IMG/VR virus record: IMGVR_UViG_3300007735_000801 | Length of the DNA: 64,000 bases | Strand: one strand, 5' to 3' | Source: a virus | In this document: one piece after another, positions 5,270-26,190 of the stretch | Layout of the letters: each line of letters begins with the position of its first letter | Numbering within the stretch: the first letter of the stretch is position 1 | Made by a program: the position numbers and the translations under genes | Notes under the pieces: model-generated | The model's database searches: none | What the model was told of the DNA's origin: nothing | What the model saw: only the letters and a program-made list of their open reading frames with translations

Positions 5270-5719
5270 TTATCGGTTTTGCTCGTAAGAGTTGTGGTGA
5301 AGGTGAAGTTCGGTGCGCCAATCATAGGTGGCAGGATCATTACCGTCCCAATGACCATCATTAACAGTAACACCACAGCGACGATCCATGAGTCGTGCTT
5401 CCTGTTGGGCTTCACTCCCATCATAGGGATTAACACCATAAAAGTCTGCAAGGCGGCGTGTGGACTCCTCTTGATTCAGGATCATGGTGTCAGCCTCTAC
5501 CTCTGCCACCGCAGTCCACATGAGGCGGCAACAAGCCATGTCTAATTCGTCGGTAAACCAATAGAGTACATCACGAAACAGGCGATCTGTGCCAAAGCGG
5601 AATACCGCTTTACAGTATCCGTCACCATCATGTCCTGCTGAGTGCAGGGGACGAAGGCGAGCATTGCGACTGGCAAAGGTCTGGGCGAAGTCAGCGTACT
5701 GTGCGAGTGTTGGAGTCAT
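5270..5719 (-). CDS. hypothetical protein (first gene after a cassette promoter)
   Basis: RBS AAGGATAC, 5' hairpin and promoter directly upstream. Confidence 0.75.
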   Translation of the reverse strand: MTPTLAQYADFAQTFASRNARLRPLHSAGHDGDGYCKAVFRFGTDRLFRDVLYWFTDELDMACCRLMWTAVAEVEADTMILNQEESTRRLADFYGVNPYDGSEAQQEARLMDRRCGVTVNDGHWDGNDPATYDWRTELHLHHNSYEQNR

Positions 5720-5747
5720 TGGGTATCCTTGAGTGGGGTGCGATTTT

Positions 5748-5798
5748 GGCGAACATTCGCCGTTTTGAGCATCTTAACCTCGATTTTCACGGTGTCAA
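5748..5798 (-). promoter_or_regulatory. cassette promoter TTGACA-N16-TAAGAT plus 5' hairpin
   Basis: -35 at 5793-5798, -10 at 5771-5776, hairpin GGCGAA-TG-TTCGCC. Confidence 0.8.
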
Positions 5799-6102
5799 AT
5801 GGTAATTGAAGATTTTTAAAAGATTTTTATCGTGTCAGATAGGAAATAGTGGGGCGAAATGGGGCGAAGTGGGGCTGGGATAGGATATGTGGAGTTTTAG
5901 CGTAAAACAGGGGTAAGAGTCTGTGCCTCAACTCGCATCCCCCAACAGCCCTCTCAGAGGCTCTCAGATGCCCTAGGAACTGTCCGTAGCCTTTTTCCCG
6001 CCATCAGCACCCCCCAAGCGTGGACAACGCCCTGCGGCTTTAGATACGCTCTGCCACGATCTGAGGAATCTGAGGAATCTGTGAAATTATTTAATTTTTC
6101 TC

Positions 6103-6130
6103 TTGACTTCTCCGAAATCGGTGGTATACT
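6103..6130 (+). promoter_or_regulatory. plus-strand promoter TTGACT-N16-TATACT, convergent with the array
   Basis: Near-consensus hexamers, AAATCG in the spacer, AT-rich upstream tract; no ORF downstream. Confidence 0.7.
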
Positions 6131-6244
6131 TGGAGCAGACGCAGAGGTGCTACGGCTGTCCTCTGAGCGCACCGAGTTATGGGCGGCTGTGGCGTTGGGT
6201 GGCAACTATCAACAGGCGAGTCCGATAACTGGAATAATAATAAA

Positions 6245-6472
6245 ATAATAAAGCCTCATTCGGTGGCTCTAAGTCAGAGTCGAATGAGGCTCATGGCAGG
6301 GTGTGGCAGACACCTTGCCTGAACTGGGATTTATACCCCGCCTGACACTTTTCCCCCTGTTGAGGGTACTAGGCGAACAACGCAGGGTGAACAGGTGTTG
6401 CTGACACCCATGACAGAGCAGATAGGTGTTGTTTATAAGCACTCACCTACAAGGTTTTTGTATTCGTGTCAT
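6245..6472 (-). ncRNA. candidate structured non-coding RNA (about 225 nt)
   Basis: Lies between a consensus promoter (6479-6506) and a terminator (6252-6291); only a 9-codon ORF; several complementary stems. Confidence 0.6.
6252..6291 (-). terminator. intrinsic terminator
   Basis: AGCCTCATTCG...CGAATGAGGCT stem followed by a T-rich tail on the minus strand. Confidence 0.75.
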
Positions 6473-6478
6473 GCCCCT

Positions 6479-6506
6479 ATTATACAGCCGATTTCCACCG
6501 TGTCAA
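6479..6506 (-). promoter_or_regulatory. promoter TTGACA-N16-TATAAT
   Basis: Perfect consensus hexamers. Confidence 0.9.
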
Positions 6507-6682
6507 GTGGAAAATTAAATTATTATTGTGCAGTCCGATAACTTAGCCGTCCCATAACACCCCCTGCAACTATCAACTGGCGACGCAAAGTCCGATAACT
6601 TGCGGCGAAATAATAATAAATAAAAAACCCCCCTGCCGTTTTACGGGCAGAGGGGTCAGACCTTTCAAAGATCGTCAGGGGA

Positions 6683-7660
6683 TCAGGCGTTCACCGCCAT
6701 CCACGCTTCAGCCTGAGCGTAGGCTTTCTCCTTGATGGTCGAGCCGACCCCGAACAGGTTCGACTCCAAACGCAGGGAGTCATTGCTGTCCTCACCCTTC
6801 ACAGTACGCTCATGATCCACCCATTGGGTGATCGCATTCACAGCCGACCACAGGCTACCCGCAGACCGCATACCTGTCTGCTTTGTGTCAACCCAAAGGT
6901 TGGTACGCCACGCATCCAACACCTGCTCGTAGCGAGTATTGCCACGCCCTGATGCCTTTGGAGTTCCGTTCATGGAGTTATACACCTCCTGAAAGAACAC
7001 ATCCGCACTAGCCGTAGTCACTTCACGCTGTGCCAAACTGTTGCAGAACTTAGTGAAAGACTCAGCCTGTCCCATTCCTGCTTCAACCCATTCCTTGATC
7101 ATGCCAAACCGTGCTTTCGAGCCTGATCCGTGACGAATGGATGCCGAGTCAGCCTTGCCCTTCATACCCGCCAAAGCCATCATGAAAGTGTTCATGCAGA
7201 CAATGCGTTGAGCATTCAAGCCAAGTGTGGTAGCCCAACTCGTATCATGGCTAGTACCAATAAAAAAGTTATTATTAACCACATCACGAGGATCGCCGCC
7301 AATGTTCACCTGACCCAAGTCAACTTGGAAGAAGACTCGTTTGCCATTGTTGATTGAACCCACTTGGGTGCAACTAGTACCGCTGAAGTTAGTGATCTCA
7401 TAGCAGAGATCAGCCAACTCATGGTTCTGAATGGAAGTGTAGCCTTCCTTTGCAACAGCAAACACAAAGCCTGTGTCCTCACGCACAATCGCCCTGTAGT
7501 CACCGCCTGAGTACGCCGCACCGTCAGCACCGCAAGCCACGATAGGCAAGGTGGAAACCTTCCAATCCAAACCTGCCTTCCGCATCATGGAAATCGGGTC
7601 AGCCGTCAAGTTAGCCTTGTCAGCATCAGTAGCATTGTAAAGTTGAATCGTAGAAGCCAT
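6683..7660 (-). CDS. DUF932 family (phage/plasmid-like) protein
   Basis: AGLDWKV, AIVREDTG, YTSIQN, TSHD, RIVCMNT, IRH and GSLWSAVNAITQWVDH motifs. Confidence 0.85.
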   Translation of the reverse strand: MASTIQLYNATDADKANLTADPISMMRKAGLDWKVSTLPIVACGADGAAYSGGDYRAIVREDTGFVFAVAKEGYTSIQNHELADLCYEITNFSGTSCTQVGSINNGKRVFFQVDLGQVNIGGDPRDVVNNNFFIGTSHDTSWATTLGLNAQRIVCMNTFMMALAGMKGKADSASIRHGSGSKARFGMIKEWVEAGMGQAESFTKFCNSLAQREVTTASADVFFQEVYNSMNGTPKASGRGNTRYEQVLDAWRTNLWVDTKQTGMRSAGSLWSAVNAITQWVDHERTVKGEDSNDSLRLESNLFGVGSTIKEKAYAQAEAWMAVNA

Positions 7661-7691
7661 TCGAGTATCTCCTGAAAGAGTTAGTGAGAAT

Positions 7692-7749
7692 TGTCAGCAG
7701 GAACTTCCTGCCGACACGCCGATTGTACGCTCAATTTGCACGGTGTCAA
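7692..7749 (-). promoter_or_regulatory. cassette promoter TTGACA-N16-TACAAT plus 5' hairpin
   Basis: -35 at 7744-7749, -10 at 7722-7727, hairpin 7692-7716. Confidence 0.85.
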
Positions 7750-7941
7750 ATTGAATTTGCAATTTTTTAAAATATTTTTATATCCTTTATATCGGCGCAA
7801 GATAGAGTCCGATAACATAGCCGAGTCCGATAACCCCTGCGACTATCAACACGCCGCCCCCTGAGTCCGATAACTCAGGGACGGCAAAAACCCCCCTGCC
7901 CTGTTGGGGGCAGAGGGGGCTGTCACACCCGTGATTGGTGT

Positions 7942-8424
7942 TTACTTCTTCATGTACTCCGTGATGTAGCCGCTGATCGTTCCGTCACCGTTCACAATGC
8001 CCTTGCCATAGGCTTCGATCAGCCACGCCATCGCCTCAGCAATCTTGTTCAACTGCTTCACATTCAGCGTGTCCATGAACTCCTTCGCCGCCCACCCTGT
8101 CATTTCGTCACCGCTATGGCTGAACACAACCAACTTCATACCAATATGCGACGAATAGAACTCAGGGAAAATCTCCATCGAGATGTTCTCAGGAGAGCCT
8201 TCGAATGTCTTGCCGAACAACTCGTTGTCAGGATCACAGGCGAACTTAAACCCATCCTGATTAGCGTTGTCCTTCAAGAGTAACACTTCGCCAACCTCAT
8301 CGCCAATGAATCCGTCCAACCCTGCGTTGGCAGGGGCTTCAAGCATATTCACCACATGGTTGTACATTCGTGAAGCGATTGACTTCTTGTTTGCCATAGT
8401 ATTGATGTCTGTGAGTGAGAACAT
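7942..8424 (-). CDS. hypothetical cassette protein
   Basis: RBS AAAGG, own promoter, terminator near 7887-7919. Confidence 0.8.
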   Translation of the reverse strand: MFSLTDINTMANKKSIASRMYNHVVNMLEAPANAGLDGFIGDEVGEVLLLKDNANQDGFKFACDPDNELFGKTFEGSPENISMEIFPEFYSSHIGMKLVVFSHSGDEMTGWAAKEFMDTLNVKQLNKIAEAMAWLIEAYGKGIVNGDGTISGYITEYMKK

Positions 8425-8452
8425 GAGTAGCCTTTCTGAAAGAGTTGAGTGA

Positions 8453-8505
8453 GTGTCAGCACCTTGCCGACACCGTCATTATGGGGTCGATTTTCACCGT
8501 GTCAA
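8453..8505 (-). promoter_or_regulatory. cassette promoter TTGACA-N16-CATAAT plus 5' hairpin
   Basis: -35 at 8500-8505, -10 at 8478-8483. Confidence 0.8.
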
Positions 8506-8624
8506 GTAAAATATTAAATTATTTTTTTCTTTAAAGAAATCCGCAGAGTCCGATAACCACTGCGACTATCAACAACCGTCCCGCTCACCCAACAAGGGGA
8601 GCAGGAGCGGTTGCCCTCTTTAGA

Positions 8625-8894
8625 TTATTTGGCGAACAGTCTGCCGCTGATGCGTTGCCGCCTACGCTCAGCCGCCTCCTCAGGCGTACCCTTGCTGTCC
8701 TCGATCTGAATGCGAACATCACGCAACTGACGCTCCAAGTACTCCACCTGTTCACCCAACTCACGCCGAACCGATGCTCCGAAACTTCCCTCCTCAGCCA
8801 TAGCGTCATAGGGAACATTCGCAAGGTCATCCAAGCGAGTCAGACAATCCTTGAGTGTATTCTCAAGCCACCCCAACCTGACTAACAGATTCAC
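8625..8894 (-). CDS. hypothetical coiled-coil protein
   Basis: GTG start overlapping the upstream stop (GTGA). Confidence 0.65.
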   Translation of the reverse strand: MNLLVRLGWLENTLKDCLTRLDDLANVPYDAMAEEGSFGASVRRELGEQVEYLERQLRDVRIQIEDSKGTPEEAAERRRQRISGRLFAK

Positions 8895-9241
8895 GCCGCA
8901 CCCCCTTCGTTGACAAAGGCGGTATTCTTGCATTGGTAGCGAACACCACCACGGAAATACGGCATATCGAATGTGGATTCAAATGTGGGAGGTGAACACT
9001 TGTTCACCACCTCTTTGGTACGGCAATTACGCCACCCTGCCATGTATGCCCCCATGCGATTGAGCAGTTCACGCTTGCTGACATGACCATGCGTCAGCAC
9101 ATCCACTTCCGCAGACCCGACATAGTCCACTAACGACACCTTACCAAACGACCCAAACGATATGCCGTATGCTTCGCCTGTGTGCAGGTTGAGTGTGTCG
9201 CAGAACTGCTTCACTTGCATTTTTGTGATTCGAGTACCCAT
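8891..9241 (-). CDS. hypothetical phage protein
   Basis: RBS AGGAG; RITK..LN..GHVSKRELL pattern. Confidence 0.75.
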   Translation of the reverse strand: MGTRITKMQVKQFCDTLNLHTGEAYGISFGSFGKVSLVDYVGSAEVDVLTHGHVSKRELLNRMGAYMAGWRNCRTKEVVNKCSPPTFESTFDMPYFRGGVRYQCKNTAFVNEGGAA

Positions 9242-9273
9242 TGTTAGTTGCTCCTAAAGAGGTTCAGTATCCA

Positions 9274-9323
9274 CGGCAACCCTGCCGCTGTGTAGATTCT
9301 ACAGCCGATTTTCACCGTGTCAA
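9274..9323 (-). promoter_or_regulatory. cassette promoter TTGACA-N16-TAGAAT plus 5' hairpin
   Basis: -35 at 9318-9323, -10 at 9296-9301. Confidence 0.85.
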
Positions 9324-9496
9324 ATTAAATCTTAAATAATTATTTGACCAATAACTCCTAGAGTCCGATAACCCCTGCGACTATCAACACGACGAAAAAT
9401 ACCCTCCCCGAAGGGAGGGCGAGGCGAACCTCTTTGTTGTTTGAAGAAGTAGGGCGGGGTAGCCCCGTGGCTTGCCCCGCCGCACCCTCTTTGTAC

Positions 9497-9772
9497 TTAC
9501 ACCTTCGTAGCCTTACCTTGCGCCCATTGGGCGAGGCGAGCATACGAAGCCTTACGCAGGCGATTAGTTACCCACTTGTCGCTCTTTGGGTAGAAGCGAT
9601 TCGCATAGCCGCAGGCAGTCGCACCCTGCTCCAAGACAAAGCGGCAACCCTCATCATCGCTTGCACCGACCAACGCAAGGGCTTCGGCATTGTGCAGACG
9701 GCGTGGGTGTTGGGCAACCTCATGAGCAAACGCTACTCCCGCAGTTGACAAGTTAAGTGTTGAGTTTTCCAT
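9497..9772 (-). CDS. hypothetical cassette protein
   Basis: RBS AAAGGATAC, own promoter and terminator. Confidence 0.8.
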   Translation of the reverse strand: MENSTLNLSTAGVAFAHEVAQHPRRLHNAEALALVGASDDEGCRFVLEQGATACGYANRFYPKSDKWVTNRLRKASYARLAQWAQGKATKV

Positions 9773-9806
9773 AATCTAGTATCCTTTCATTAAGAGTTTA
9801 GTGAGT

Positions 9807-9857
9807 GTCAGCACCTTGCTGACTGCCGCATCATAAAGCCAATTTGCACCGTGTCAA
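9807..9857 (-). promoter_or_regulatory. cassette promoter TTGACA-N16-TATGAT plus 5' hairpin
   Basis: -35 at 9852-9857, -10 at 9830-9835. Confidence 0.85.
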
Positions 9858-9986
9858 ATGGAAAATTAAATTATTTTCGAGTCCGATAACTTACGAGTCC
9901 CATAACCCCTGCGACTATCAACACCGAAGCCTAGCCGCCCCGAAGGGCGGCAGGGACGAATCCTTTTCGGCGTTGGGGTTATCGGC

Positions 9987-10532
9987 TCATGCGTGTCCCC
10001 CCCTGATGGCGCACCAAATCACCGCTTGCGTTGCGGCGTTGCTCCATCCCATGCCAACCGCAACCGCAGTTACTGCCGACGCTAGGGCAAAGTATTTGCC
10101 CTTGCTTAGACTCTTGCTAGAGTCTAGCCCCGCCGCTTTCACCATCCAAGTGTCCACCACCACCGCCGCCATATCCCCCGCAATTGCACGGGCAAAGGCG
10201 TTGGTCTTTAATCCCTTCAACGCCGCAAATCCAAGGCGAGTACTCGCTTGCGCCATGCGCAAGTTATTCCGCAATCCCTTAGGCTTGCCACCCATTGCGA
10301 ATAACAAGGCTTGCGCCTTATTATTATTCCACTTATTGCGTGGACTGAATGAGGATACAACGGATGCCGCCACTTCCAATGTCCAAGGCGTAATTGTCGT
10401 AAGGTGAATAGCGAAGGCTTGCGCTTCGCAGTACCATGCCAAAGCATCCGCCAAGGCTTGTCCCTTGAGGGACTGCGCCAAGGTAGCGTACTTGGAAGTG
10501 GCGGATTCAAAGAGTTTAGTATTGAGTTTCAT
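9987..10532 (-). CDS. HhH-GPD glycosylase-like phage protein (DUF7178-like)
   Basis: SFSPRNKW..N, GLKTNAF, VVVDTWM and QAVIW motifs. Confidence 0.6.
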   Translation of the reverse strand: MKLNTKLFESATSKYATLAQSLKGQALADALAWYCEAQAFAIHLTTITPWTLEVAASVVSSFSPRNKWNNNKAQALLFAMGGKPKGLRNNLRMAQASTRLGFAALKGLKTNAFARAIAGDMAAVVVDTWMVKAAGLDSSKSLSKGKYFALASAVTAVAVGMGWSNAATQAVIWCAIRGGHA

Positions 10533-10566
10533 GATGGTATCCTATAAAGAGTTTAGAGTAAGATTA

Positions 10567-10617
10567 GGCAACGGCGTTGCCATGCGTCGATTGTAAGGTC
10601 GAATTTCACCGTGTCAA
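10567..10617 (-). promoter_or_regulatory. cassette promoter TTGACA-N16-TACAAT plus 5' hairpin
   Basis: -35 at 10612-10617, -10 at 10590-10595. Confidence 0.85.
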
Positions 10618-10785
10618 ATTAAATCTTAAATTATTTTTCTTTAAAGAAAAAAATTATTATCAGGACCTTGGCGACTATCAACATTTGGTGAAGTCCGATA
10701 ACCATGGCAACTATCAACAGGCGCAAAAAGATCAGCAGGGTAGCCCCGTGGCTTGCCCTACTGATCCCTCTTTGTTGCGTTGTCT

Positions 10786-11001
10786 TTACTTCACGCTTAC
10801 CACCACGCCTTGATCATCAACCTTTACCGTGGCGTACCAACTGTGTGGCGCAGGATACTGTGGACCTTCCACACAAACCGTTTCACCGTATACCGTGCTA
10901 CTTCCCATCGGACTTGGTTGCCACACTCCGACTTTCACGCCTTGCGCAATCGCTTCTTTGAATTGCTTCTTTGTCTTGTAGTTTGTCGTGCAGTAAGCCA
11001 T
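10786..11001 (-). CDS. conserved small phage protein
   Basis: MAYCTTNYKTKKQFKEA..VEGPQYPAPHSWYA; RBS AAGGATAC. Confidence 0.8.
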   Translation of the reverse strand: MAYCTTNYKTKKQFKEAIAQGVKVGVWQPSPMGSSTVYGETVCVEGPQYPAPHSWYATVKVDDQGVVVSVK

Positions 11002-11032
11002 TTGAGTATCCTTTATTAAAGAGTTGAGTGAT

Positions 11033-11082
11033 ATGGCAGAGTTGCCATGCGTCGATTGTACAGTCGATTTCCATCGTGTCAA
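11033..11082 (-). promoter_or_regulatory. cassette promoter TTGACA-N16-TACAAT plus 5' hairpin
   Basis: -35 at 11077-11082, -10 at 11055-11060. Confidence 0.85.
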
Positions 11083-11242
11083 ATTAAATCTTAAATAATT
11101 TATTGTCCAATAACTACTGTGACTATCAACATTCACAGAGTCCGATAACCCTGGCGACTATCAACAGGCGAAAAATTTTCAAAAATTCTTTAAAGAAAAA
11201 CCCACCCGCCAAACTTACGGCGGGGGGTTTCTTTTTTGCTCT

Positions 11243-11593
11243 TTAGTAGTGAGGGTCTCGATAAGTGTCTCGGAAGCCAACCGAAACGTATTGTCCACCC
11301 GTTGTCTTCCATCGACCATTGCTTCGCAGTTTTACTGTGATTGGACTTGCGCCTTCCACGGTCTCGTAGGTTTTTACCTTCTCGCTACCTTCGCCACCCG
11401 AAACGTCCCAAACGACCCGATCATGTGTCATCGTGAATTGCGTAATCTGTCCCTTGCGCTTGCCACTCTTGGCAAAAGTAACGCTTGTAACCGTGCAACC
11501 GTAGCGATCCGTCCACCACAATTCGGTGGCAGGACCACCGACAAAGGGAGCAGGCATTCCGTCGATCATGTTCGCATAAACGTAGTTGATCAT
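11243..11593 (-). CDS. conserved hypothetical phage protein
   Basis: PFVGGPAT..TDRY..RSNGRW..G.RDTYRDPHY pattern; RBS AAAGGA. Confidence 0.8.
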   Translation of the reverse strand: MINYVYANMIDGMPAPFVGGPATELWWTDRYGCTVTSVTFAKSGKRKGQITQFTMTHDRVVWDVSGGEGSEKVKTYETVEGASPITVKLRSNGRWKTTGGQYVSVGFRDTYRDPHY

Positions 11594-11622
11594 TTCAATC
11601 CTTTCAAAGAGGGGAAGTGAAA

Positions 11623-11672
11623 TCGGCAACGTGCCGACATCGTCAGTATGGAGCCAATTTTTACCGTGTCAA
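11623..11672 (-). promoter_or_regulatory. cassette promoter TTGACA-N16-CATACT plus 5' hairpin
   Basis: -35 at 11667-11672, -10 at 11645-11650. Confidence 0.8.
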
Positions 11673-11872
11673 ATTAAATCTTAAATTTATTTCAAATTAT
11701 TTTTCTTTAAAGAAAAAAAAAATTATCGGACCCTGGCGACTATCAACATTCACAGAGTCCGATAACACATGGCGACTATCAACATCCGCTCCCTGGGGAG
11801 GGGAGGGATGCTGGAGATCAGTCTGGGTATCATCCCCATCCACTCCCCCGAAGGGGAGGGATGGGGGAACTC

Positions 11873-12187
11873 TCAACCTCCCATGCAGGTTGGGAAGTAC
11901 CGTCGCATCACATCCATCGACTTCGAAGTTTCAGGATCAGTCGATTTCAGGAGGGCGGCGATTTCGAACTGTGGAACCTCAACTACAAATTCTTTGTGGC
12001 AGGTTCCTGCTTCTTGAGTGAGCCAAGCGTTGATGTGTTTGGTGGTTGTGCGTGAGTACCTTTCCTTGGCACGAACAAATCCAAAGTCCCGTACAAACGC
12101 CGCTACGGGAGTCGAGTACGATACGAACACAGTCGCATTTGTGAGGGTTAGAGTCATTTGGTTGTTTCCGAGAGATGTAATCTTCAT
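11873..12187 (-). CDS. conserved hypothetical phage protein
   Basis: SYSTPVAA..YSRTTTKHINAWL motif; RBS AAAGGATAC. Confidence 0.8.
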   Translation of the reverse strand: MKITSLGNNQMTLTLTNATVFVSYSTPVAAFVRDFGFVRAKERYSRTTTKHINAWLTQEAGTCHKEFVVEVPQFEIAALLKSTDPETSKSMDVMRRYFPTCMGG

Positions 12188-12221
12188 GGCTAGTATCCTT
12201 TCAAAGAGGGGAGAGTGAGCA

Positions 12222-12272
12222 TTGGCAACCCTGCCAACAAGAGCAGTATGGAGTCAATTTGCACGGTGTCAA
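12222..12272 (-). promoter_or_regulatory. cassette promoter TTGACA-N16-CATACT plus 5' hairpin
   Basis: -35 at 12267-12272, -10 at 12245-12250. Confidence 0.8.
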
Positions 12273-12486
12273 ATTAAATTCTCGATTTTCGTTCTTTAAA
12301 GAAAAAAATATTTTGTCCAATAACCTTGGCGACTATCAACATTTGGTGAAGTCCGATAACAGGTGGCGACTATCAACATGCGAAAAAAAAGACCGCCCCC
12401 TCGGAACTCCACGGAGGGGGGGACTTCTCTTTTGCTTGGTAGAAGTAAGGCGGAGCAGCCCCATGGCTTGCTCCGCCGCACCCTCT

Positions 12487-12729
12487 TTAGTCCTTTTCCT
12501 TGAATGTGTTATTTGCCATGAAAACTTGAAGTGATGGCAACGCCTCAATCAAGCGTATCCATTGACCCTTGTACAGGGTCACGGGAAACCGACCCAAGCC
12601 ATATACGCTCAAAGCACCCTTCTCGGACACCTTGAAGCCGATTGCCTTCACCTTGGATGCCGCCGCCTCCGCCGCCGCCGCTTTGAGTGCGGCATTCTCC
12701 GCCATTAACATTTCTAGTTGACTTGCCAT
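12487..12729 (-). CDS. conserved small protein (KVSEKGALSVYGLGRFPVTLYK family)
   Basis: Recognisable conserved-hypothetical motif after a coiled-coil N-terminus. Confidence 0.8.
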   Translation of the reverse strand: MASQLEMLMAENAALKAAAAEAAASKVKAIGFKVSEKGALSVYGLGRFPVTLYKGQWIRLIEALPSLQVFMANNTFKEKD

Positions 12730-12759
12730 TTCTGACCTTTCTGAAAGAGTTGAGTGTCA

Positions 12760-12810
12760 TCGGCAACCCTGCCGACAAGAGCAGTATGGAGTCAATTTCC
12801 ACCGTGTCAA
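12760..12810 (-). promoter_or_regulatory. cassette promoter TTGACA-N16-CATACT plus 5' hairpin
   Basis: -35 at 12805-12810, -10 at 12783-12788. Confidence 0.8.
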
Positions 12811-12948
12811 ATCAAATTCTCAATTTTCGTTCTTTAAAGAAAAAAAATATTATCAGGACGTTGGCGACTATCAACAATGCCAGAGTCTGATAACCTCTGG
12901 CGACTATCAACATCCGCTCCCCTGGGGAGGGGAGGGATGCTGGCGAGC

Positions 12949-13287
12949 TCACCGACCAATTTCACCTTCGCCCTTTCCCCAATCTTTGTGCGCCTCATAC
13001 GCTTCCAGCTGAGGATCAGAATCCTCACCCCATCGTGCATCCAAAGCTCGCTCAACCATTGCGCCGCAATATTCTTTAACCTGCTTGAGAGTCTTGAATT
13101 CTTTGGCGATTTCATCAGCTCCCCAACATTCCACGATGCTGTCGCCACCACGCTCATAGTTTCGTTCACACATATCGTAGACTGAATCAACAAATGCAAT
13201 TTGTTCATTTGTTGGGTTGGATTTGGCAATCCATCGGTTGAGTGTTGCGCCATTATCATCAGTAAAGTTTCTTGATTTCATGTCCAT
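12949..13287 (-). CDS. hypothetical acidic cassette protein
   Basis: RBS AAAGG; own promoter and downstream hairpin. Confidence 0.8.
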   Translation of the reverse strand: MDMKSRNFTDDNGATLNRWIAKSNPTNEQIAFVDSVYDMCERNYERGGDSIVECWGADEIAKEFKTLKQVKEYCGAMVERALDARWGEDSDPQLEAYEAHKDWGKGEGEIGR

Positions 13288-13338
13288 TTGTAGTGCCTTT
13301 CAAAGAGGGGTTTTTAAAGAGTAAACGAGTGAGCGTGT

Positions 13339-13367
13339 ATTATACCAAATTGTGTATTAAATGTCAA
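13339..13367 (-). promoter_or_regulatory. promoter TTGACA-N17-TATAAT (no 5' hairpin)
   Basis: Perfect consensus hexamers. Confidence 0.85.
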
Positions 13368-13464
13368 ATGAAATTCTTAATTTTCGTTCTTTAAAGAAAA
13401 AAAAAATATTATAGGACCCTGCGACTATCAACATCCGCTCCCCCGAAGGGGAGGGATGTGGCGA

Positions 13465-13647
13465 TCAGTCTCGATTCCATCCGAAGTACTCCCTCTCTTC
13501 CAGAGGGATTGGAGCAGCCACTTGGGGCTTGGGCTCTCCATACTTGGCGAGCCTTCGCTCTCGCCTCGTCAGAGGAACTTCCACTTCCGCCTTTGGTTGG
13601 GGGGGCTGTTCGCCCCCCCTTCCGCTTCTTCGTCCTCTAGGACTCAT
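13465..13647 (-). CDS. small hypothetical protein
   Basis: ATGA-coupled to the Csx16-like gene. Confidence 0.55.
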   Translation of the reverse strand: MSPRGRRSGRGGEQPPQPKAEVEVPLTRRERRLAKYGEPKPQVAAPIPLEEREYFGWNRD

Positions 13648-13979
13648 ACTTCACCCCCCGCCTTCATGACCACGTAGGTATTGAAACCTTGGAAGGCTTC
13701 CCTAACTTCTTCGATACCCAATTCTTTCCCACGTTGATCGGGGGTGAGTTGTAAAGTGGCTTCCGTTACGCTTGCGGCGAGTGCCGCAAGGTGGAGGGGA
13801 AGAACGCCCAACACATTCTTGCCCGTTACAAGGGCGGCGGTGGCATGGGCAACCACAGGCGTGGTGGCATCAAATGCGCCACGCTCAATCAAGAATTCGA
13901 CCAATCCTGTGTGGCGAGTTACAATCAGATCAATCAGTACGACGGGGGGATTTGTTGACGAGCAATCGACGATACGCAT
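13644..13979 (-). CDS. csx16: Csx16-like (Cas_VVA1548 family) putative cyclic-oligoadenylate ring nuclease
   Basis: IVTRHTGLVEFL, VAH, VLGVLPLHLAA and QRGKELGIEE follow the Csx16 motif order and spacing; RBS AAAGGA. Confidence 0.75.
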   Translation of the reverse strand: MRIVDCSSTNPPVVLIDLIVTRHTGLVEFLIERGAFDATTPVVAHATAALVTGKNVLGVLPLHLAALAASVTEATLQLTPDQRGKELGIEEVREAFQGFNTYVVMKAGGEV

Positions 13980-14008
13980 GAGTAGATCCTTTCAAAGAGG
14001 GGAAGTGA

Positions 14009-14059
14009 TATGGCGAAGTTGCCATGCGTGAAGTATACACTCGATTTCCACGCTGTCAA
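14009..14059 (-). promoter_or_regulatory. cassette promoter TTGACA-N16-TATACT plus 5' hairpin
   Basis: -35 at 14054-14059, -10 at 14032-14037. Confidence 0.85.
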
Positions 14060-14243
14060 ATGGGGGAGTCCTGTCCGAACAGTACACAGCGTTATGGGAC
14101 TCCCACGAGCCTCCTGGGGCTAGCACACATACCTGCAAGACTCCAAGGACGGCAGAGGACGGCAAACCACGCAGACCCCCCCCACCCCCATACCCCCCTA
14201 TTCGATTCCTGAGGATCCCCCCTCTCTAATTTTTTTTTTTTTT

Positions 14244-14251
14244 TATAAATA
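14244..14251 (+). promoter_or_regulatory. T4-type late promoter TATAAATA
   Basis: Exact consensus 4 nt before the GTG; equivalents at 14802, 15282, 15667 and 18762. Confidence 0.75.
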
Positions 14252-14255
14252 TATC

Positions 14256-14795
14256 GTGCTATCCTTTAAACAACATATAACGGAATCTTTACATATTCAC
14301 CCTTCTCCAGATGATCCTCATGATGTAGCAAAGTCCAATTTTACTTACGGAAAAGTTATCAAGAATGATATGATGGATACAGATAAATTAATTGGAGGAA
14401 TTAGTGATACCGATAAAAAAGAACAAGAACGAGTCTCAGATTTAGTTGCAAAAATGTCTAACCCTAAAACTGGTCATATCTCCAGACTAATTGTAGACAC
14501 TGGTGGAAATGTGCTGGAAGGACAACATCGTCTTTCTGCAGCAAGACAACTAGGACATAAAAAAGTTCCAGTTACGATTATAAAGGATTTAAGTTCTGGA
14601 TTTGATGTTTCTAAAATTGAAAAAGAAATTTCCGCAAAAGGGTATCACCCAGATCACGTACACCAAATAACACACCAAATACTAGACATGATTCACACAT
14701 CAGGTTCTCCTGGCAAAGCATTATCTTCCTATGAATTTCCTCAAGGTCACGAAGCGGCATTCATTGCAGGATTGAATGCGGCTATTCCTCAATAA
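14256..14795 (+). CDS. putative internal head protein with ParB/Srx-like domain
   Basis: N-terminal MLSFKQHITE (capsid-targeting-like); LIVDTGGNVLEGQHRLSAARQLGHKKVPV. Confidence 0.75.
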   Translation: MLSFKQHITESLHIHPSPDDPHDVAKSNFTYGKVIKNDMMDTDKLIGGISDTDKKEQERVSDLVAKMSNPKTGHISRLIVDTGGNVLEGQHRLSAARQLGHKKVPVTIIKDLSSGFDVSKIEKEISAKGYHPDHVHQITHQILDMIHTSGSPGKALSSYEFPQGHEAAFIAGLNAAIPQ

Positions 14796-20000: not shown

Positions 20001-20073
20001 GAGACGGTAGACCAACGGCAGAGTCAAGACACTTAAAATGTCTGTAGTGTGGGTTCAACTCCCACTCGTCTTA
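20001..20073 (+). tRNA. tRNA-Leu(TAA), short variable arm, no encoded CCA
   Basis: Acceptor GAGACGG/TCGTCTT, anticodon arm AGACA-CTTAAAA-TGTCT, T arm GTGGG-TTCAACT-CCCAC. Confidence 0.85.
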
Positions 20074-20096
20074 TTAAAAAATATTTTAAAGATTAC

Positions 20097-20124
20097 TTGA
20101 CTTCTTGATTTTAGGTGGTATAAT
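20097..20124 (+). promoter_or_regulatory. promoter TTGACT-N16-TATAAT
   Basis: Near-consensus hexamers upstream of the HTH gene. Confidence 0.8.
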
Positions 20125-20198
20125 TACTTATCGTAATGAATTGAAACGGACACAATTCATATTAAACATGGTCCGAATTTTAACAGAAAGGTTACTAT

Positions 20199-20483
20199 AT
20201 GATTACTTCTCCTCGTCGTCCTGCAACCAAGATGCAAAAGGTTATTTCGTATCTTGCTACAGGTAAGACACTCACTGCGCCTGAGGCTCGTTCTCGTTTT
20301 GGTGTGGCTAATCTTCGTGCAACAATCAGCGATATTCGTGATGTTGTCGAAGCTTTTGGCAACTGGCAAGTTATTCGTGAAACCAGTTCAACTGGCAAGA
20401 CACGATACGCCATGAAGGACACGTACAAGGGCATGCGAAAGATGGGTTTCCATAAGAACGGAACTCGTTTCACGATTCGCTAA
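20199..20483 (+). CDS. winged helix-turn-helix DNA-binding protein
   Basis: VISYLATGKTLTAPEARSRFGVANLRATISDIR. Confidence 0.8.
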   Translation: MITSPRRPATKMQKVISYLATGKTLTAPEARSRFGVANLRATISDIRDVVEAFGNWQVIRETSSTGKTRYAMKDTYKGMRKMGFHKNGTRFTIR

Positions 20484-20573
20484 AGATACTTTTGAGTGGT
20501 TACTTTTTATTATGGGGATGCATTGGTAAAACAATGCATCTCTTTTTCGGAATAAATAAAGTGGAGGTTCAAT

Positions 20574-20798
20574 ATGGAACAACTATTTTACGCTAAAGCA
20601 AACATTAGTGGTCGTGATGTGGATCTAGTGTTTACTGAATCACAAATTTTGGATGGGGTTAAACTTGCAATGTCTAATTGTGAATTAGTCTGTGAGAGTA
20701 ATCCTGGTAATTGTTGGACAATGGAAAAGCCACAAGGATGTTCTTTGTGGAAGAAAATGTTTAATCTTTGCGGATGCAAAGAAGAAAAGAAAGATTAA
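20574..20798 (+). CDS. hypothetical protein
   Basis: GGAGG RBS; TAAATA upstream. Confidence 0.65.
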   Translation: MEQLFYAKANISGRDVDLVFTESQILDGVKLAMSNCELVCESNPGNCWTMEKPQGCSLWKKMFNLCGCKEEKKD

Positions 20799-20799
20799 T

Positions 20800-21114
20800 A
20801 TGGAAACTTTGATTATTCGTGTAAAGACTGGTGAAGATGTTTTGTGTCGTGCAACTAAGAATGATGGCGGTTATCTGGTTCAAGATGCTATGGCACTTGT
20901 TCCTACTCCAGATGGTCGTCTCGCATTTGTTGGCTGGATGCCGTTTGCAAACACAAAGGATGGTATTCAGATTCCTTCAGATTTTATCTACATGACACTG
21001 AAACCAGAAGCTAGTATTGAAACTCAGTATATGGGATTCAAGAGTGGTCTTGTAAGTCCACCACAAAAGAATGTGGTTGGTCCAGGCGGTCTGCATCTCG
21101 TAGGAGCACCGTAA
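20800..21114 (+). CDS. conserved T4-like hypothetical protein (Sm-like)
   Basis: IIRVKTGEDVL..WMPF pattern. Confidence 0.7.
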   Translation: METLIIRVKTGEDVLCRATKNDGGYLVQDAMALVPTPDGRLAFVGWMPFANTKDGIQIPSDFIYMTLKPEASIETQYMGFKSGLVSPPQKNVVGPGGLHLVGAP

Positions 21115-21127
21115 CTAAAAAGACTTA

Positions 21128-21202
21128 ACACTCGTAGCTCAGTTGGATAGTAGCAGCATTTTTCTAAAGTGCAGGTCATTGGTTCGAATCCAATCGGGTG
21201 TG
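21128..21202 (+). tRNA. tRNA-Arg(TCT)
   Basis: ACACTCG/CGGGTGT acceptor, GCATT-TTTCTAA-AGTGC, ATTGG-TTCGAAT-CCAAT. Confidence 0.85.
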
Positions 21203-21233
21203 TTAAAATGTCTTAGAATATATATATCTAAGT

Positions 21234-21599
21234 ATGAAAAAGCAATGTAAAATCTGTAATGAATTAAAGGATACTTCTTGTTTTTATAAAAGACCAGACA
21301 GAAAAAAGAATCAAGAACATTCATATTGTAGAGAATGTTTTAATATTTATTGTATCGAAAGATGGAAACAAAAAAGATTGGATGCATTAGTTTATAAAGG
21401 CGGAAAATGTTCCGAATGTGGTTATAATGAATGCAATGCTGCTTTAGAATTTCATCATTTAGATCCGTCGAAAAAAGAATTTGATTGGTCAAAAATGCGT
21501 CTAAGAAGTAAAATAAATATTACAAAAGAGTTGGATAAATGTATATTGTTGTGTTCAAATTGTCACAGAAAATTACATTATAATAAAGAAAATAAATAA
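21234..21599 (+). CDS. HNH endonuclease
   Basis: YKGGKCSECGY..LEFHHLDP..LLCSNCHRKLH. Confidence 0.85.
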   Translation: MKKQCKICNELKDTSCFYKRPDRKKNQEHSYCRECFNIYCIERWKQKRLDALVYKGGKCSECGYNECNAALEFHHLDPSKKEFDWSKMRLRSKINITKELDKCILLCSNCHRKLHYNKENK

Positions 21600-21604
21600 A
21601 CACT

Positions 21605-21799
21605 ATGGAAATAACATTTATAATTTTTGCAACATTACTTATCGTATTACAAGGTATACAGTTATACCTATATGGGTATGAGAATGGTTATATAAGGAGT
21701 ACAGAAAATGAAAAACAAAATGCCAGAAAACTACATTCCAGGTCACGCCTACAAACAAGGTCACCAAGCAAGATTAAGCGGAAGAGATATGCCCGATAG
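21605..21799 (+). CDS. small membrane protein
   Basis: Hydrophobic N-terminus, basic tail. Confidence 0.5.
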   Translation: MEITFIIFATLLIVLQGIQLYLYGYENGYIRSTENEKQNARKLHSRSRLQTRSPSKIKRKRYAR

Positions 21800-21917
21800 T
21801 GGAAATGTCGGAGTGTATTGGGACGAATATCGTGCTGGCTGGTTTGATGCTGATCGTGGTATAATTGAGTCTGCTCGTAAAGATATTTCAGAAAATAAAC
21901 AATTTTTACAGGATTAA
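21708..21917 (+). CDS. small protein, weak Rmf-like pattern
   Basis: AYKQGHQARLSG..YRAGWFDA. Confidence 0.45.
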   Translation: MKNKMPENYIPGHAYKQGHQARLSGRDMPDSGNVGVYWDEYRAGWFDADRGIIESARKDISENKQFLQD

Positions 21918-21921
21918 TGAC

Positions 21922-22215
21922 ATGATAGATAAACATTTTACGGTTGACGGAGTGTCTGCGGTTACTCATGAGCGAAAGCCAATAATTAGAGTATATCGAG
22001 ATCCTCATTGTTCTGGAGCAATGCTGGCATCAGTCGACAACATGAACACAGAAGAAGCAATTGATGGATACACTTATAGTGAATTAGTTTCTATTCGTAA
22101 TACGTTAAATGAAGTTCTTAATCATATTGATGTTCAGGAAACTATTGCCGAGTATAATGCAAGCTTTCCAAAGTCATTAGAACTCGACGAATGGGGAACT
22201 GCTTCGTCGGATTAA
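21922..22215 (+). CDS. hypothetical protein
   Basis: ORF with AGGA RBS. Confidence 0.6.
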   Translation: MIDKHFTVDGVSAVTHERKPIIRVYRDPHCSGAMLASVDNMNTEEAIDGYTYSELVSIRNTLNEVLNHIDVQETIAEYNASFPKSLELDEWGTASSD

Positions 22216-22218
22216 CCT

Positions 22219-22344
22219 ATGAGTAGTAAACATGATGCAGGCAAAGGTGATGTTTATCGTCCTGTCGATAAAGCAAAGTTTGCTAAAAACTGGGACATGA
22301 TATTTAAAAAAAAGAAACCTAAGAAAAAACCCAATACCAAATAA
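22219..22344 (+). CDS. small conserved phage peptide (41 aa, not in the ORF track)
   Basis: MSSKHDAGKGDVYRPVDKAKFAKNWDMIFKKKK. Confidence 0.6.
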   Translation: MSSKHDAGKGDVYRPVDKAKFAKNWDMIFKKKKPKKKPNTK

Positions 22345-22506
22345 AGGAATTGTTCATGACTGATCCAAGAGACAGACAAGTTTTACTAGCAGTAATGCAA
22401 GAAATTAATAATATTAGTACAAATTATATTGTATTAAATAAAAGATTAAAAGAATTGCAGTCTCAAGTAAAAGATTTTCTCCAGCAATCCAATCAAGGAA
22501 ACCCTA

Positions 22507-22761
22507 ATGTTCCGTCTACACATTGATATTCCTTTGTCGGATAACGAATCAGAATCCGCACAAACTGCCAAGGCTATTATTGCGTTACTAGAACACAAGG
22601 TGCATCCTAGCAGAAATATATTTGCAGTTGACGTTATTAACTATCGATTAGGTAATGATCAGGATCGTCAAAAATCCAATTACCTAATTAAGAACCAGAA
22701 TGGTCATGTGGCAAATAAAAAACTTAAAATTAACTTGACAACGGAAAATCAGGATGTATAA
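22507..22761 (+). CDS. hypothetical protein
   Basis: AAGGA RBS; 84 aa. Confidence 0.65.
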   Translation: MFRLHIDIPLSDNESESAQTAKAIIALLEHKVHPSRNIFAVDVINYRLGNDQDRQKSNYLIKNQNGHVANKKLKINLTTENQDV

Positions 22762-22762
22762 T
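22735..22762 (+). promoter_or_regulatory. promoter TTGACA-N16-TATAAT for tRNA-Ile
   Basis: Perfect hexamers ending 8 nt upstream of the tRNA. Confidence 0.85.
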
Positions 22763-22770
22763 TCTCTTAT

Positions 22771-22842
22771 GGGATGTACGTGCCTGGTGGCGCAGGATTG
22801 CTTATAACGATCTACCGCAGGGTTCGACTCCCTGGCATCCTA
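22771..22842 (+). tRNA. atypical tRNA-Ile(TAT)
   Basis: GGGATGT/GCATCCT acceptor, GATTG-CTTATAA-CGATC, CAGGG-TTCGACT-CCCTG; non-canonical D arm. Confidence 0.7.
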
Positions 22843-23081
22843 TTATGAACGACACACAAAATAAAATCTGTAAAGAACTAACGTCTAAAATCGTTTCCTA
22901 TTTGCAACACTCAGGAGTTCAGATGACTCCTCAACATGTGAATGGTATATTTGCTATTTGTAGTTCTCTATACGGCAAAAATAATAAAATGCCGTTAGTG
23001 CCTAAAAAAGTAAAAGTAAAACGTCTCGAATCTTAAATTACTGTTTGATTTAACAACGGGCTATGCCCAAGAAAGGTTACT

Positions 23082-23594
23082 ATGCGTAATAATGTTTTTT
23101 TTAGTTTGTTTGGTATTACTAGTGTGGTGTTTGGTGTGTTTACATTGGCTGCAAGTTATCCGTCTGGTTTGAGTTATACCCTGTTTGGGATTGGTGCGAT
23201 GCTTATGTTGACTGGTGTTGTGTTTGAGACAATGAATTATATGCAACAAAATTTCTATAATAAATTTGAGACCCTTGGTCGCAATACTGATGACATGATT
23301 AGTGATTTGCAGAGAACGTTTAATGCTTCTCAGCAACAAACCAATCAGACTGTTCAGAGAAATTTTGAATCAATTCAGCACCGCATTGTAGAAGAGGTTC
23401 GTAATATTCATCTGCAAATGGAGTCTCTTGAAGTATCAAAGCATAATCTGTTTGATGAGATGGATAGCCGTCTGACTGATCTTGCGGTTGAAGTAGACGC
23501 TGCTATTACGAATAGAGACGATTCTGATGATGAGGGATATTTCCCATCACCATCAAAGGGATCTCGTAAGTGCTGTGCCACAAAGAAGAGTTAA
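23082..23594 (+). CDS. membrane protein with two TM segments and a coiled coil
   Basis: Hydrophobic N-terminus; GAAAGG RBS. Confidence 0.7.
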   Translation: MRNNVFFSLFGITSVVFGVFTLAASYPSGLSYTLFGIGAMLMLTGVVFETMNYMQQNFYNKFETLGRNTDDMISDLQRTFNASQQQTNQTVQRNFESIQHRIVEEVRNIHLQMESLEVSKHNLFDEMDSRLTDLAVEVDAAITNRDDSDDEGYFPSPSKGSRKCCATKKS

Positions 23595-23601
23595 ACACTC
23601 A

Positions 23602-23674
23602 GGTCCTATAGATTAACTGGCTAAATCACTGCCCTTTCAAGGCAGCTATCTGGATTCGAGTTCCAGTAGGATCA
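23602..23674 (+). tRNA. tRNA-Glu(TTC)
   Basis: GGTCCTA/TAGGATC acceptor, CTGCC-CTTTCAA-GGCAG, CTGGA-TTCGAGT-TCCAG. Confidence 0.85.
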
Positions 23675-25260: not shown

Positions 25261-26190
25261 ATGATCAGACATTTAGGATATGCTTGCCAGAACCTGTCAC
25301 TACAAACAGGCAGAAAATTATCTGAGCGTATACAAACCAGTAGAACTATTCGTATGAAGAACTTTACCCTGCAACGAGCAGGTGAACTTGCTGTTAGGAA
25401 TAGTGCTGACCTTCTGCCTATTCTTAAGTGGAATGCCAAAAACAATATTAAATTTTTTCGTATTGGCAGTGATATATTTTCGTTTATGGATCATGCCGAT
25501 CTTGCCTATACTCTAGATGATTTAGACTCAAATCATCGCACAAAAATTATTCAAAATTTTGCTGAAGCAGGAGCGTTTGCACAGGCTAATGGTATGCGCC
25601 TATCTTGTCATCCTGGACCGTATACCTGCCTAGCCTCTCCTAATCCGAGCATTGTAGAGAAGAGTATTACCAGTCTGCGTATGCATTCGCTGATTGCTGA
25701 TCTGTTAGGTTACGGCGAAGAGTTTGCCATCAACATTCATGTGGGCGGAGTATACGAAGATAAGGCGGCTACAGCAAAACGATTTGTCCAAGTATACCGA
25801 CAGTTGACACCACTCTTGCAGAGACGACTCACTCTAGAAAACGACGATAAAGCCTCTATGTGGAGCATACAGGAGTTGTACGATCTTGTTCATCAGGATT
25901 GCGGTGTGAAACTAGTACTAGACATTCATCATCACAAGTTTTGCCAAGGCGGCAATACTCTAGAAACTGCTGCCCAATTAGCGTTCTCTACTTGGGTAGG
26001 ATTTTCAGAAATTCCAAAGATACACTATTCAGAGTCCAAAGCCAACTCACGACCACAAGCCCACTCCGACTATCTAAAAGAAAGTATTCCAGTATTGTGC
26101 AACGATACCGAATACGATGTAATGATTGAAGCAAAATCCAAAGACCTAGCCCTACTACACTACAAGAAAGAGATACTCAATGAACGATGA
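25261..26190 (+). CDS. uvsE: UV DNA damage endonuclease
   Basis: LGYAC, FFRIGSD, RLSCHPG, INIHVGG, RLTLENDD, LDIHHH, HYSE, AHSDY, MIEAKSKD. Confidence 0.95.
   Translation: MIRHLGYACQNLSLQTGRKLSERIQTSRTIRMKNFTLQRAGELAVRNSADLLPILKWNAKNNIKFFRIGSDIFSFMDHADLAYTLDDLDSNHRTKIIQNFAEAGAFAQANGMRLSCHPGPYTCLASPNPSIVEKSITSLRMHSLIADLLGYGEEFAINIHVGGVYEDKAATAKRFVQVYRQLTPLLQRRLTLENDDKASMWSIQELYDLVHQDCGVKLVLDIHHHKFCQGGNTLETAAQLAFSTWVGFSEIPKIHYSESKANSRPQAHSDYLKESIPVLCNDTEYDVMIEAKSKDLALLHYKKEILNER

Follow-up and report, generated by a model that had tools for sequence, protein, structure and literature searches.

Two conserved box motifs at the joints of a probable PeSL-type cassette array in an uncultured virus

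We analysed a 64,000-nucleotide stretch of the IMG/VR virus record IMGVR_UViG_3300007735_000801 (hereafter the window), which carries on its minus strand an array of 13 contiguous promoter-bearing units with small genes. Taken as a whole, this array is probably a hyperplastic early-gene region of the promoter-early stem-loop (PeSL) type, endowed with a lattice of two short sequence boxes, A and B, for one DNA-binding protein. Each unit brings together a putative terminator hairpin, an AT tract and a strong promoter of host type, then a hairpin at the 5' end of the RNA and a shared leader that holds a ribosome-binding site, followed by a single small gene, a pair of them or a non-coding RNA (ncRNA). 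PeSL cassettes are known from the T4-type phages RB49/phi1, T4/PST and KVP40/nt-1, where their definition comprises a stem-loop and an AT tract, next a promoter of host type, and lastly a Shine-Dalgarno site with its start codon; they are associated with insertions and deletions, and recombination between adjacent elements gives mini-circles (Arbiol et al. 2010, PMC2839356; Comeau et al. 2014, PMC4122927). The type of array is already known; what goes beyond PeSLs here is an invariant box lattice, a wholesale replacement of promoters and a strong step in base composition.

The relatives used for comparison were one IMG/VR contig of 153,850 bp (loci L003 and L012) and ~22 metagenome contigs bearing the same boxes. 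Loci L001 and L002, retrieved with the promoter pattern, and L009, L015, L021-L023, L025 and L027, retrieved with the box pattern, were left out as chance singletons in coding DNA.

Architecture of the junctions

A sequence-only reading of the window had listed 13 positions of -35 boxes, and each of them proved to be the low end of a minus-strand TTGACA hexamer. After this hexamer come 16 nucleotides (17 in one case) and a -10 hexamer of the form TAnnnT or CATAMT. As judged from sequence, all 13 sigma-70-like sites match the consensus at 10 to 12 of its 12 positions. An 18-nucleotide extended consensus running through the spacer recovered 12 of the 13 promoters when a single mismatch was allowed, and under that condition it matched nothing outside 5783-14061. 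The promoters are the following:

14032-14059, minus strand: promoter 1, TTGACA-N16-TATACT
13339-13367, minus strand: promoter 2, perfect TTGACA-N17-TATAAT, with a different spacer sequence and a leader without hairpin
12783-12810, minus strand: promoter 3
12245-12272, minus strand: promoter 4
11645-11672, minus strand: promoter 5
11055-11082, minus strand: promoter 6
10590-10617, minus strand: promoter 7
9830-9857, minus strand: promoter 8
9296-9323, minus strand: promoter 9
8478-8505, minus strand: promoter 10
7722-7749, minus strand: promoter 11
6479-6506, minus strand: promoter 12, perfect TTGACA-N16-TATAAT
5771-5798, minus strand: promoter 13

The two leader elements that the same reading had described were recovered as well. 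A hairpin of 5 to 11 bp lies within the first ~20 nucleotides of 11 of the 12 leaders, and the CTCTTT-plus-Shine-Dalgarno leader is found in 10 to 11 units, the Shine-Dalgarno site and start codon being present at the 3' end of the junction element. Of the 60 distinct leaders in all related loci, 40 can form a simple hairpin of at least 5 bp, compared with 20% after shuffling. These hairpins are built from 26 distinct stem sequences, so that pairing is kept rather than sequence. The CTCTTT element, located directly before the ribosome-binding site, presumably resembles both the boxA of ribosomal RNA antitermination and the translational enhancer of T7 gene 10; boxA of ribosomal RNA antitermination leaders also comes after a hairpin. 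It seems most likely that the element is a translational enhancer or a common operator of a translational repressor such as RegA.

Upstream of each promoter, the -35 box is preceded by the AT tract, and the box lattice separates this tract from the terminator hairpin of the preceding unit. Where the initial reading had placed a terminator, a strong hairpin precedes every box cluster, but 5 of the 12 hairpins in the window have no T-run. The first box lies 0-9 nucleotides past the upstream hairpin in ~62 of 70 junctions taken from all related loci. Box A (GTTGATAGTCGC) is present in 17 copies against 1.09 expected, all of them on the minus strand and within 6202-13432, while box B (GTTATCGGAC) has 26 matches against 6.8 expected in the window, ~20 of which are in the array. 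The boxes are organised as follows:

13408-13432, minus strand: box cluster A and inverted B
12849-12911, minus strand: box cluster A, B, A, inverted B
12315-12377, minus strand: box cluster A, B, A, B
11722-11783, minus strand: box cluster A, B, A, inverted B
11105-11165, minus strand: box cluster A, B, A, B
10656-10718, minus strand: box cluster A, B, A, inverted B
9881-9922, minus strand: box cluster A, B, B
9346-9388, minus strand: box cluster A, B, B
8548-8573, minus strand: box cluster A, B
7807-7874, minus strand: box cluster B, A, B, B
6533-6599, minus strand: box cluster B, A, B, B
6202-6229, minus strand: terminal box cluster B, A, then a degenerate inverted B
8527-13398, no strand: seven junction copies of the palindrome TTCTTTAAAGAA

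With 7 exact copies where 0.7 would be expected, all of them in the array, this 12-bp palindrome adds a third motif specific to the array; six copies stand between boxes and promoter and one (11186-11197) upstream of its box cluster. Two units are exceptions to the general layout, unit 1 (14059) having no upstream box A and promoter 13 (5798) being ~400 bp away from its boxes. Five copies of box B in the window are clearly inverted (14091-14100, 13408-13417, 12849-12859, 11722-11731 and 10656-10666).

The boxes had been described as a polar, protein-binding layer. The layer is real and under constraint, and its polarity holds for box A but not for box B: over 23 loci, box A was found 112 times in forward and never in reverse orientation, and box B 139 times in forward and 34 times in reverse orientation. 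The step of the lattice is 16-19 bp. The promoter-proximal box B starts 32-34 bp from the -35 box in 18 junctions, including those of the very divergent L028 group; the other distance classes are 36, 43, 51-52 and 67-68 bp. For a box of 12 bp, the 32-34 bp class would place the centre of the site near -62. Class I activators of well-studied bacteria sit near this position.

Constraint was measured as pairwise identity at the orthologous junction before the DUF932 gene, using an alignment of 8 loci. Identity amounted to 0.95 for the boxes, 0.95 for the leader, 0.90 for the hairpin, 0.75 for the spacers, 0.66 for the AT tract and 0.51 for the promoter. On this sequence comparison boxes A and B are under constraint, because they are more similar between loci than their own spacers or the promoter next to them. 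All relatives, also those of the L028 group, carry both boxes, and the five box A copies of the 153,850-bp relative all lie inside its array. A search for the box A-B pair in 185,579 reference genomes gave nothing beyond one chance match, which argues against a host regulon as the origin of the boxes, and a search for the box strings in the literature matched only unrelated primers.

Cassette exchange and promoter turnover among relatives

The cassettes had been proposed to be exchangeable, and the relatives bear this out: the same locus was found in ~22 related contigs with cassettes gained, lost and reordered, so that neither order nor content is fixed. The same backbone leads into the array in several contigs. 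The G-rich boundary between the plus-strand late genes and the array (14060-14255, no strand) is common to L003 and L030, where it is 82-84% identical, and the phrog_36119 gene of L028 corresponds to the gene of the 798-aa neighbour in the window. Since several contigs bridge the same backbone into the array, the latter is a fixed locus and not an assembly artefact.

Cassette sets were compared by clustering the open reading frames (ORFs) into groups designated by g numbers. The window reads: two window-only cassettes (the first with two ORFs), g7, g9, a window-only cassette, g17, g4, g1, g8 and its partner, g2, g0 (DUF932) and the ncRNA. The order is g1, g7 with g14, g2, g0, g18 with the ncRNA in L003, and g1, g9, g8, g7 with g14, g2, g0, ncRNA in L030. 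The g8 cassette is absent from L010, g7 follows g1 in L033, g16 precedes g0 in L006, and a g2 paralogue stands before the ncRNA in L029 and L011. At the junction of a two-gene deletion in L010, the sequence follows the g1 side of the window up to the hairpin, both parents in box A and box B, and the g2 side thereafter. The crossover of this deletion thus falls in the hairpin/box A/box B stretch.

Promoter modules are alike throughout a genome and differ from one genome to the next, even before the same gene. The best 30-nucleotide promoter match has a median of 25/30 between different cassettes of one locus and of 17/30 between orthologous cassettes of different loci, for a background of 16/30. 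At least ten promoter modules were distinguished in the relatives, one of them without a TTGACA box and one with the T4 Mot-box-like TTTGCTTT. In L003 and L030, two promoters near the ncRNA are still of the TTGACA type, so that two promoter classes coexist there. We consider it very probable that these are PeSL-type cassettes and that recombination between the repeated junctions would add, delete and reorder them and would also homogenise the promoter module within each genome.

Two further observations concern the junctions of relatives. The cassette promoters of L006 and L011 carry TTTGCTTT(T)A, which resembles the T4 MotA box, a hint that in some lineages the same cassettes are under promoters of the middle type. 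Searched for MotA, the long relative gave no match, and neither did the control genomes. In L028 (7915-8000 and 10467-10560), and also in L020, 45-70 bp between two box A copies are occupied by TTAAC repeated about every 11 bp. TTAA-N7-TTAAC is the form of the alphaproteobacterial CtrA box and a possible clue to the host.

Gene content and genomic setting

The genes of the array and the elements at its two ends are the following:

13644-13979, minus strand: cassette 1, ORF of 111 aa, Csx16 family (Cas_VVA1548, Pfam)
13465-13647, minus strand: cassette 1, second ORF, 60 aa, basic, overlapping the upstream stop codon
12949-13287, minus strand: cassette 2, ORF of 112 aa, acidic, window-only
12487-12729, minus strand: cassette 3, ORF of 80 aa, g7, followed by a 3' hairpin with conserved loop (12457-12469)
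11873-12187, minus strand: cassette 4, ORF of 104 aa, g9, phrog_5643 (no assigned function)
11243-11593, minus strand: cassette 5, ORF of 116 aa, window-only
10786-11001, minus strand: cassette 6, ORF of 71 aa, g17
9987-10532, minus strand: cassette 7, ORF of 181 aa, DUF7178, g4 (Pfam E 1.3e-22; phrog_3842)
9497-9772, minus strand: cassette 8, ORF of 91 aa, g1
8625-9241, minus strand: cassette 9, two ORFs, the first at 8891-9241 (116 aa, g8), the second frame ending at 8625
7942-8424, minus strand: cassette 10, ORF of 160 aa, acidic, g2, in most relatives
6683-7660, minus strand: cassette 11, ORF of 325 aa, DUF932 / TIGR03299 'phage/plasmid-like protein', g0 (Pfam E 2.1e-31; NCBIfam 164.9 bits, cut-off 110.7)
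6250-6472, minus strand: ncRNA candidate of ~220 nucleotides with the perfect promoter 12 and its own terminator, 87-98% identical in 7 relatives
6103-6130, plus strand: promoter-like site TTGACT-N16-TATACT, antisense through the terminal boxes, with invariant hexamers and a variable spacer in 7 relatives
5270-5719, minus strand: ORF of 149 aa, g3, after promoter 13, heading the syntenic box-free run g3, g5, g6 and on, downstream
14256-14795, plus strand: late gene next to the array, with a capsid-targeting-like N-terminus and a modelled ParB-N/Srx (sulfiredoxin) fold plus four-helix domain (pLDDT 88)

The second ORF of cassette 9 probably starts at a GTG overlapping the first stop (~8895). 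The 3' hairpin with the conserved loop AAGCCAYGGGGCT directly follows the stop codon in three cassette genes that are unrelated to one another (12457-12469, 10742-10754 and 9461-9473, minus strand), and also in L003, L014, L026 and L033.

The initial description of the array as a set of anti-defence cassettes stood for one cassette only, that of the Csx16 family; DUF932, DUF7178 and the other ORFs give no such assignment. The first ORF of cassette 1 matches Pfam PF09652 with an E-value of 5.5e-17 and 62.2 bits for a cut-off of 25, and NCBIfam TIGR02620 with 17 bits for a cut-off of 46.35. Csx16 enzymes are ring nucleases that break down cA4, the signal of type III CRISPR systems, and they are seldom encountered in phages (bioRxiv 10.1101/2024.09.24.614671). 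DUF932/TIGR03299 and DUF7178 are mobile-element families without known function. Most of their homologues in phages come from actinophages, which have been sampled heavily. No informative match was obtained for the remaining array ORFs in the Pfam, PHROG and NCBIfam profile searches. The structure predicted for the 160-aa g2 protein (pLDDT 57.5) was too poor for a fold search, and its ESM Atlas matches were all below 0.8. An anti-defence role of the array, for which the sequence evidence is this one gene, is plausible. The accompanying comparison with the first-transferred regions of mobile elements found no support and is at odds with T4-type biology.

The ncRNA candidate keeps its 87-98% identity in relatives whose flanking DNA is ~78-89% identical, and shows two compensatory pairs only. 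No Rfam family was found for the candidate or for the array region. In L003, L016, L029, L011 and L031 an ORF lies between the promoter and the ncRNA sequence, which can thus also be a 3' untranslated element. Beyond it, the region 5800-6200 consists of ~400 bp of conserved non-coding DNA between the divergent promoters 6103-6130 (plus strand) and 5771-5798 (minus strand). It holds CTGAGAG/CTCAGA repeats in both orientations and three direct CGCCCCAYT repeats, and could be a regulatory region or a replication origin.

We read the window as part of an uncultured, distant T4-like myovirus from freshwater, on the following sequence matches. The large ORFs located downstream of the array in the window match T4-type baseplate and tail families such as the baseplate wedge gp6, whose best matches are in cyanophages and Sinorhizobium phages at 27-32% identity. 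A megablast search of the array region against GenBank phages gave no match at the DNA level. The related contigs are metagenome assemblies whose names point to lakes, such as Trout Bog. The T4-type late promoter motif TATAAATA occurs on the plus strand only, before late genes, and a scan of the window located none inside the array. One copy lies beside it at 14244 (plus strand) and belongs, with the inverted box B at 14091-14100, to the G-rich boundary. Since the promoters of the array are of host type and T4-type late promoters are lacking inside it, we infer that the array would be transcribed early.

The GC content is 0.46-0.52 at ~4-14 kb against 0.32-0.42 in the rest of the window, and GC at third codon positions (GC3) is 0.41-0.68 in array ORFs against 0.17-0.26 in structural genes. 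The distant relative L028 likewise has a GC content of 0.53-0.64 in its array against 0.35-0.42 in its backbone. Chimeric assembly was rejected as the source of this step, independent contigs bridging backbone and array in L003/L012, L030 and L028. Either the cassettes may have been drawn from a GC-richer gene pool, or the early genes may keep host-like codons because the phage tRNAs, which read A/U-ending codons, are not yet made. Four tRNA genes lie at 20001-23674 on the plus strand (Leu-TAA, Arg-TCT, Ile-TAT and Glu-TTC); all read A/U-ending codons, in keeping with late genes that are AT-rich and in contrast to the high GC3 of the early array. A gene for a UvdE UV-damage endonuclease is located at 25261-26190 on the plus strand (Pfam E 1.2e-54).

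Readings of the boxes and comparison with known systems

The boxes may be the DNA sites of one sequence-specific and probably phage-encoded protein and serve at the same time as a homology patch for exchange, a proposition that we hold to be evenly balanced. The lineage-wide A/B lattice abuts the hairpin of the putative upstream terminator and stands at a few preferred distances from the -35 box. A single box-binding protein would affect the whole set of cassettes together: it could activate from upstream, or serve as insulator or roadblock between tandem strong promoters. A lattice abutting the upstream hairpin would suit a roadblock shielding each strong promoter from read-through, and the inverted copies of box B (34 of 173) favour the recognition of double-stranded DNA. 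During cassette exchange the boxes would double as a conserved patch of homology. In a more specific form, which we regard as possible but rather doubtful, one dedicated phage protein, which may enter the cell together with the DNA, would use the A/B lattice as its operators and would switch or insulate all early cassettes, while its sites double as exchange joints. If true, early genes would have in the array a plug-in platform that persists through the exchange of whole promoter sets, and such replacement would perhaps follow different hosts or escape promoter-directed host interference.

Several points weigh against a lattice serving one DNA-binding protein in an early-gene region. Box A is never inverted. 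Five of the 12 terminator hairpins have no T-run, so that transcripts may include the boxes, which may then act in RNA. Paralogous or orthologous copies make up many of the junctions, so that the fixed spacing and orientation partly reflect descent and not selection. The 16-19 bp step does not correspond to whole helical turns, and the distances to the -35 box are only partly in helical phase. Finally, a defence-related family could be assigned to one cassette only.

A candidate for the box-binding protein was sought in the neighbouring late gene at 14256-14795. Its ParB_N match in Pfam (E 0.098) is below threshold, and no solved structure matched it by sequence. This ParB-like neighbour was rejected as box binder: its relatives were found in 25 IMG/VR contigs of varied GC without boxes beside them, and no homologue was detected in the box-bearing relative.

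The absolute polarity of box A, together with the hairpins lacking a T-run, leaves room for a role at the RNA level. The boxes would then be processing, 3'-end or decay signals in read-through transcripts, or targets of a trans-acting antisense RNA initiated at 6103-6130 (plus strand), in which anti-A and anti-B would be present; we judge this reading improbable. The strict orientation of box A (112 forward, 0 reverse), the clusters beginning within 9 nucleotides of the hairpin and the plus-strand site with its invariant -35 and -10 hexamers and variable spacer in 7 relatives all agree with such a role, but one fifth of the box B copies are inverted and, wherever a T-run exists, the boxes lie past it. 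Moreover, the putative antisense RNA has no conserved fold, and by our own reading of the sequence its anti-A would mismatch most box A copies. The conserved ncRNA, tried as a partner of the boxes, was rejected because duplex energies were no better than with shuffled boxes.

It is very improbable that the boxes are the sites of a dedicated site-specific recombinase or nuclease moving the cassettes, in an integron-like manner with each cassette keeping its own promoter. They do sit exactly at the cassette joints, the crossover of one deletion falls in the A/B stretch, and a helper DNA-binding protein for PeSL exchange was suggested by Arbiol et al. 2010 (PMC2839356). Yet the array ORFs and the flanking ORFs that were tested gave no match to an integrase, recombinase or homing nuclease family, each joint holds 1-6 box copies in place of one defined core, attC-like imperfect palindromes are absent, and homologous recombination of the T4 type on patches of 30-50 bp explains the data. 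We give the smallest probability to the boxes being passenger repeats devoid of a function of their own and kept uniform by junction-homogenising gene conversion. Junctions are clearly homogenised within genomes, and duplication could pass on orientation and spacing. Conversion within genomes would nevertheless allow drift between genomes, as is seen for promoters, whereas the boxes are the same in all lineages: the L028 group shares them despite its different genes, promoters and base composition, and they are more conserved than their own spacers (0.95 against 0.75).

Among known systems, the PeSL comparison made in the initial reading fits, with a T4-type hyperplastic region, the same junction parts and indels at the junctions. 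In both cases a T4-type phage has a region of small genes of unassigned function. Both have a composite junction in which a hairpin, a terminator stem-loop in PeSLs and a putative one here, comes with an AT-rich tract and a promoter of host type, and which closes with a Shine-Dalgarno site and start codon; insertions, deletions and reordering between relatives coincide with it. The promoter consensus varies between phage groups in both, including a Mot-box-like class (here L006 and L011). The present array differs by 30-100 bp of conserved boxes between stem-loop and AT tract, by a second hairpin inside the transcript, at its 5' end, and by the contiguity of all 13 units. It differs also by promoter modules swapped between phages ~80-89% identical in flanking DNA and by a GC3 much above that of the backbone. 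Integron arrays share the tandem exchangeable single-gene cassettes and a conserved element at each joint; in contrast, no integrase was found here among the ORFs tested, no attC-type structure is present, and each cassette has its own promoter and terminator.

Operator arrays of one mobile element are exemplified by the KorB operators of plasmid RK2, and polar roadblock terminators by Tus-Ter. As for KorB, a single short motif recurs in front of many promoters belonging to one element, and its distances from them vary yet fall into discrete classes; as for Tus-Ter, box A is strictly oriented next to terminators. Unlike in these systems, the boxes are not palindromic, and the neighbouring gene with a ParB/KorB fold does not co-occur with them. 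In the host-takeover module of Bacillus phage SPO1, small early genes are densely packed and every one of them has a strong promoter. This module and the T4 internal-protein locus (cited in PMC4122927) share with the array small early genes and strong promoters beside genes of packaged proteins, but they have no sequence relationship to it and no box lattice is known from there.

PeSL arrays are thought to be the means by which T4-type phages try out new host-interaction genes, and a specific helper protein has been an open question since 2010 (PMC2839356). The lineage described here offers a handle on this question, since two invariant motifs mark the joints and are conserved above the adjoining promoters. 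It also constitutes a natural experiment in which the same genes stand behind at least ten promoter modules. Counter-defence functions could reasonably be sought among the cassette genes (Csx16-like, DUF932, DUF7178 and many that have no relatives). A box-binding factor would show whether such arrays are mere by-products of homologous recombination or regulated and insulated platforms.

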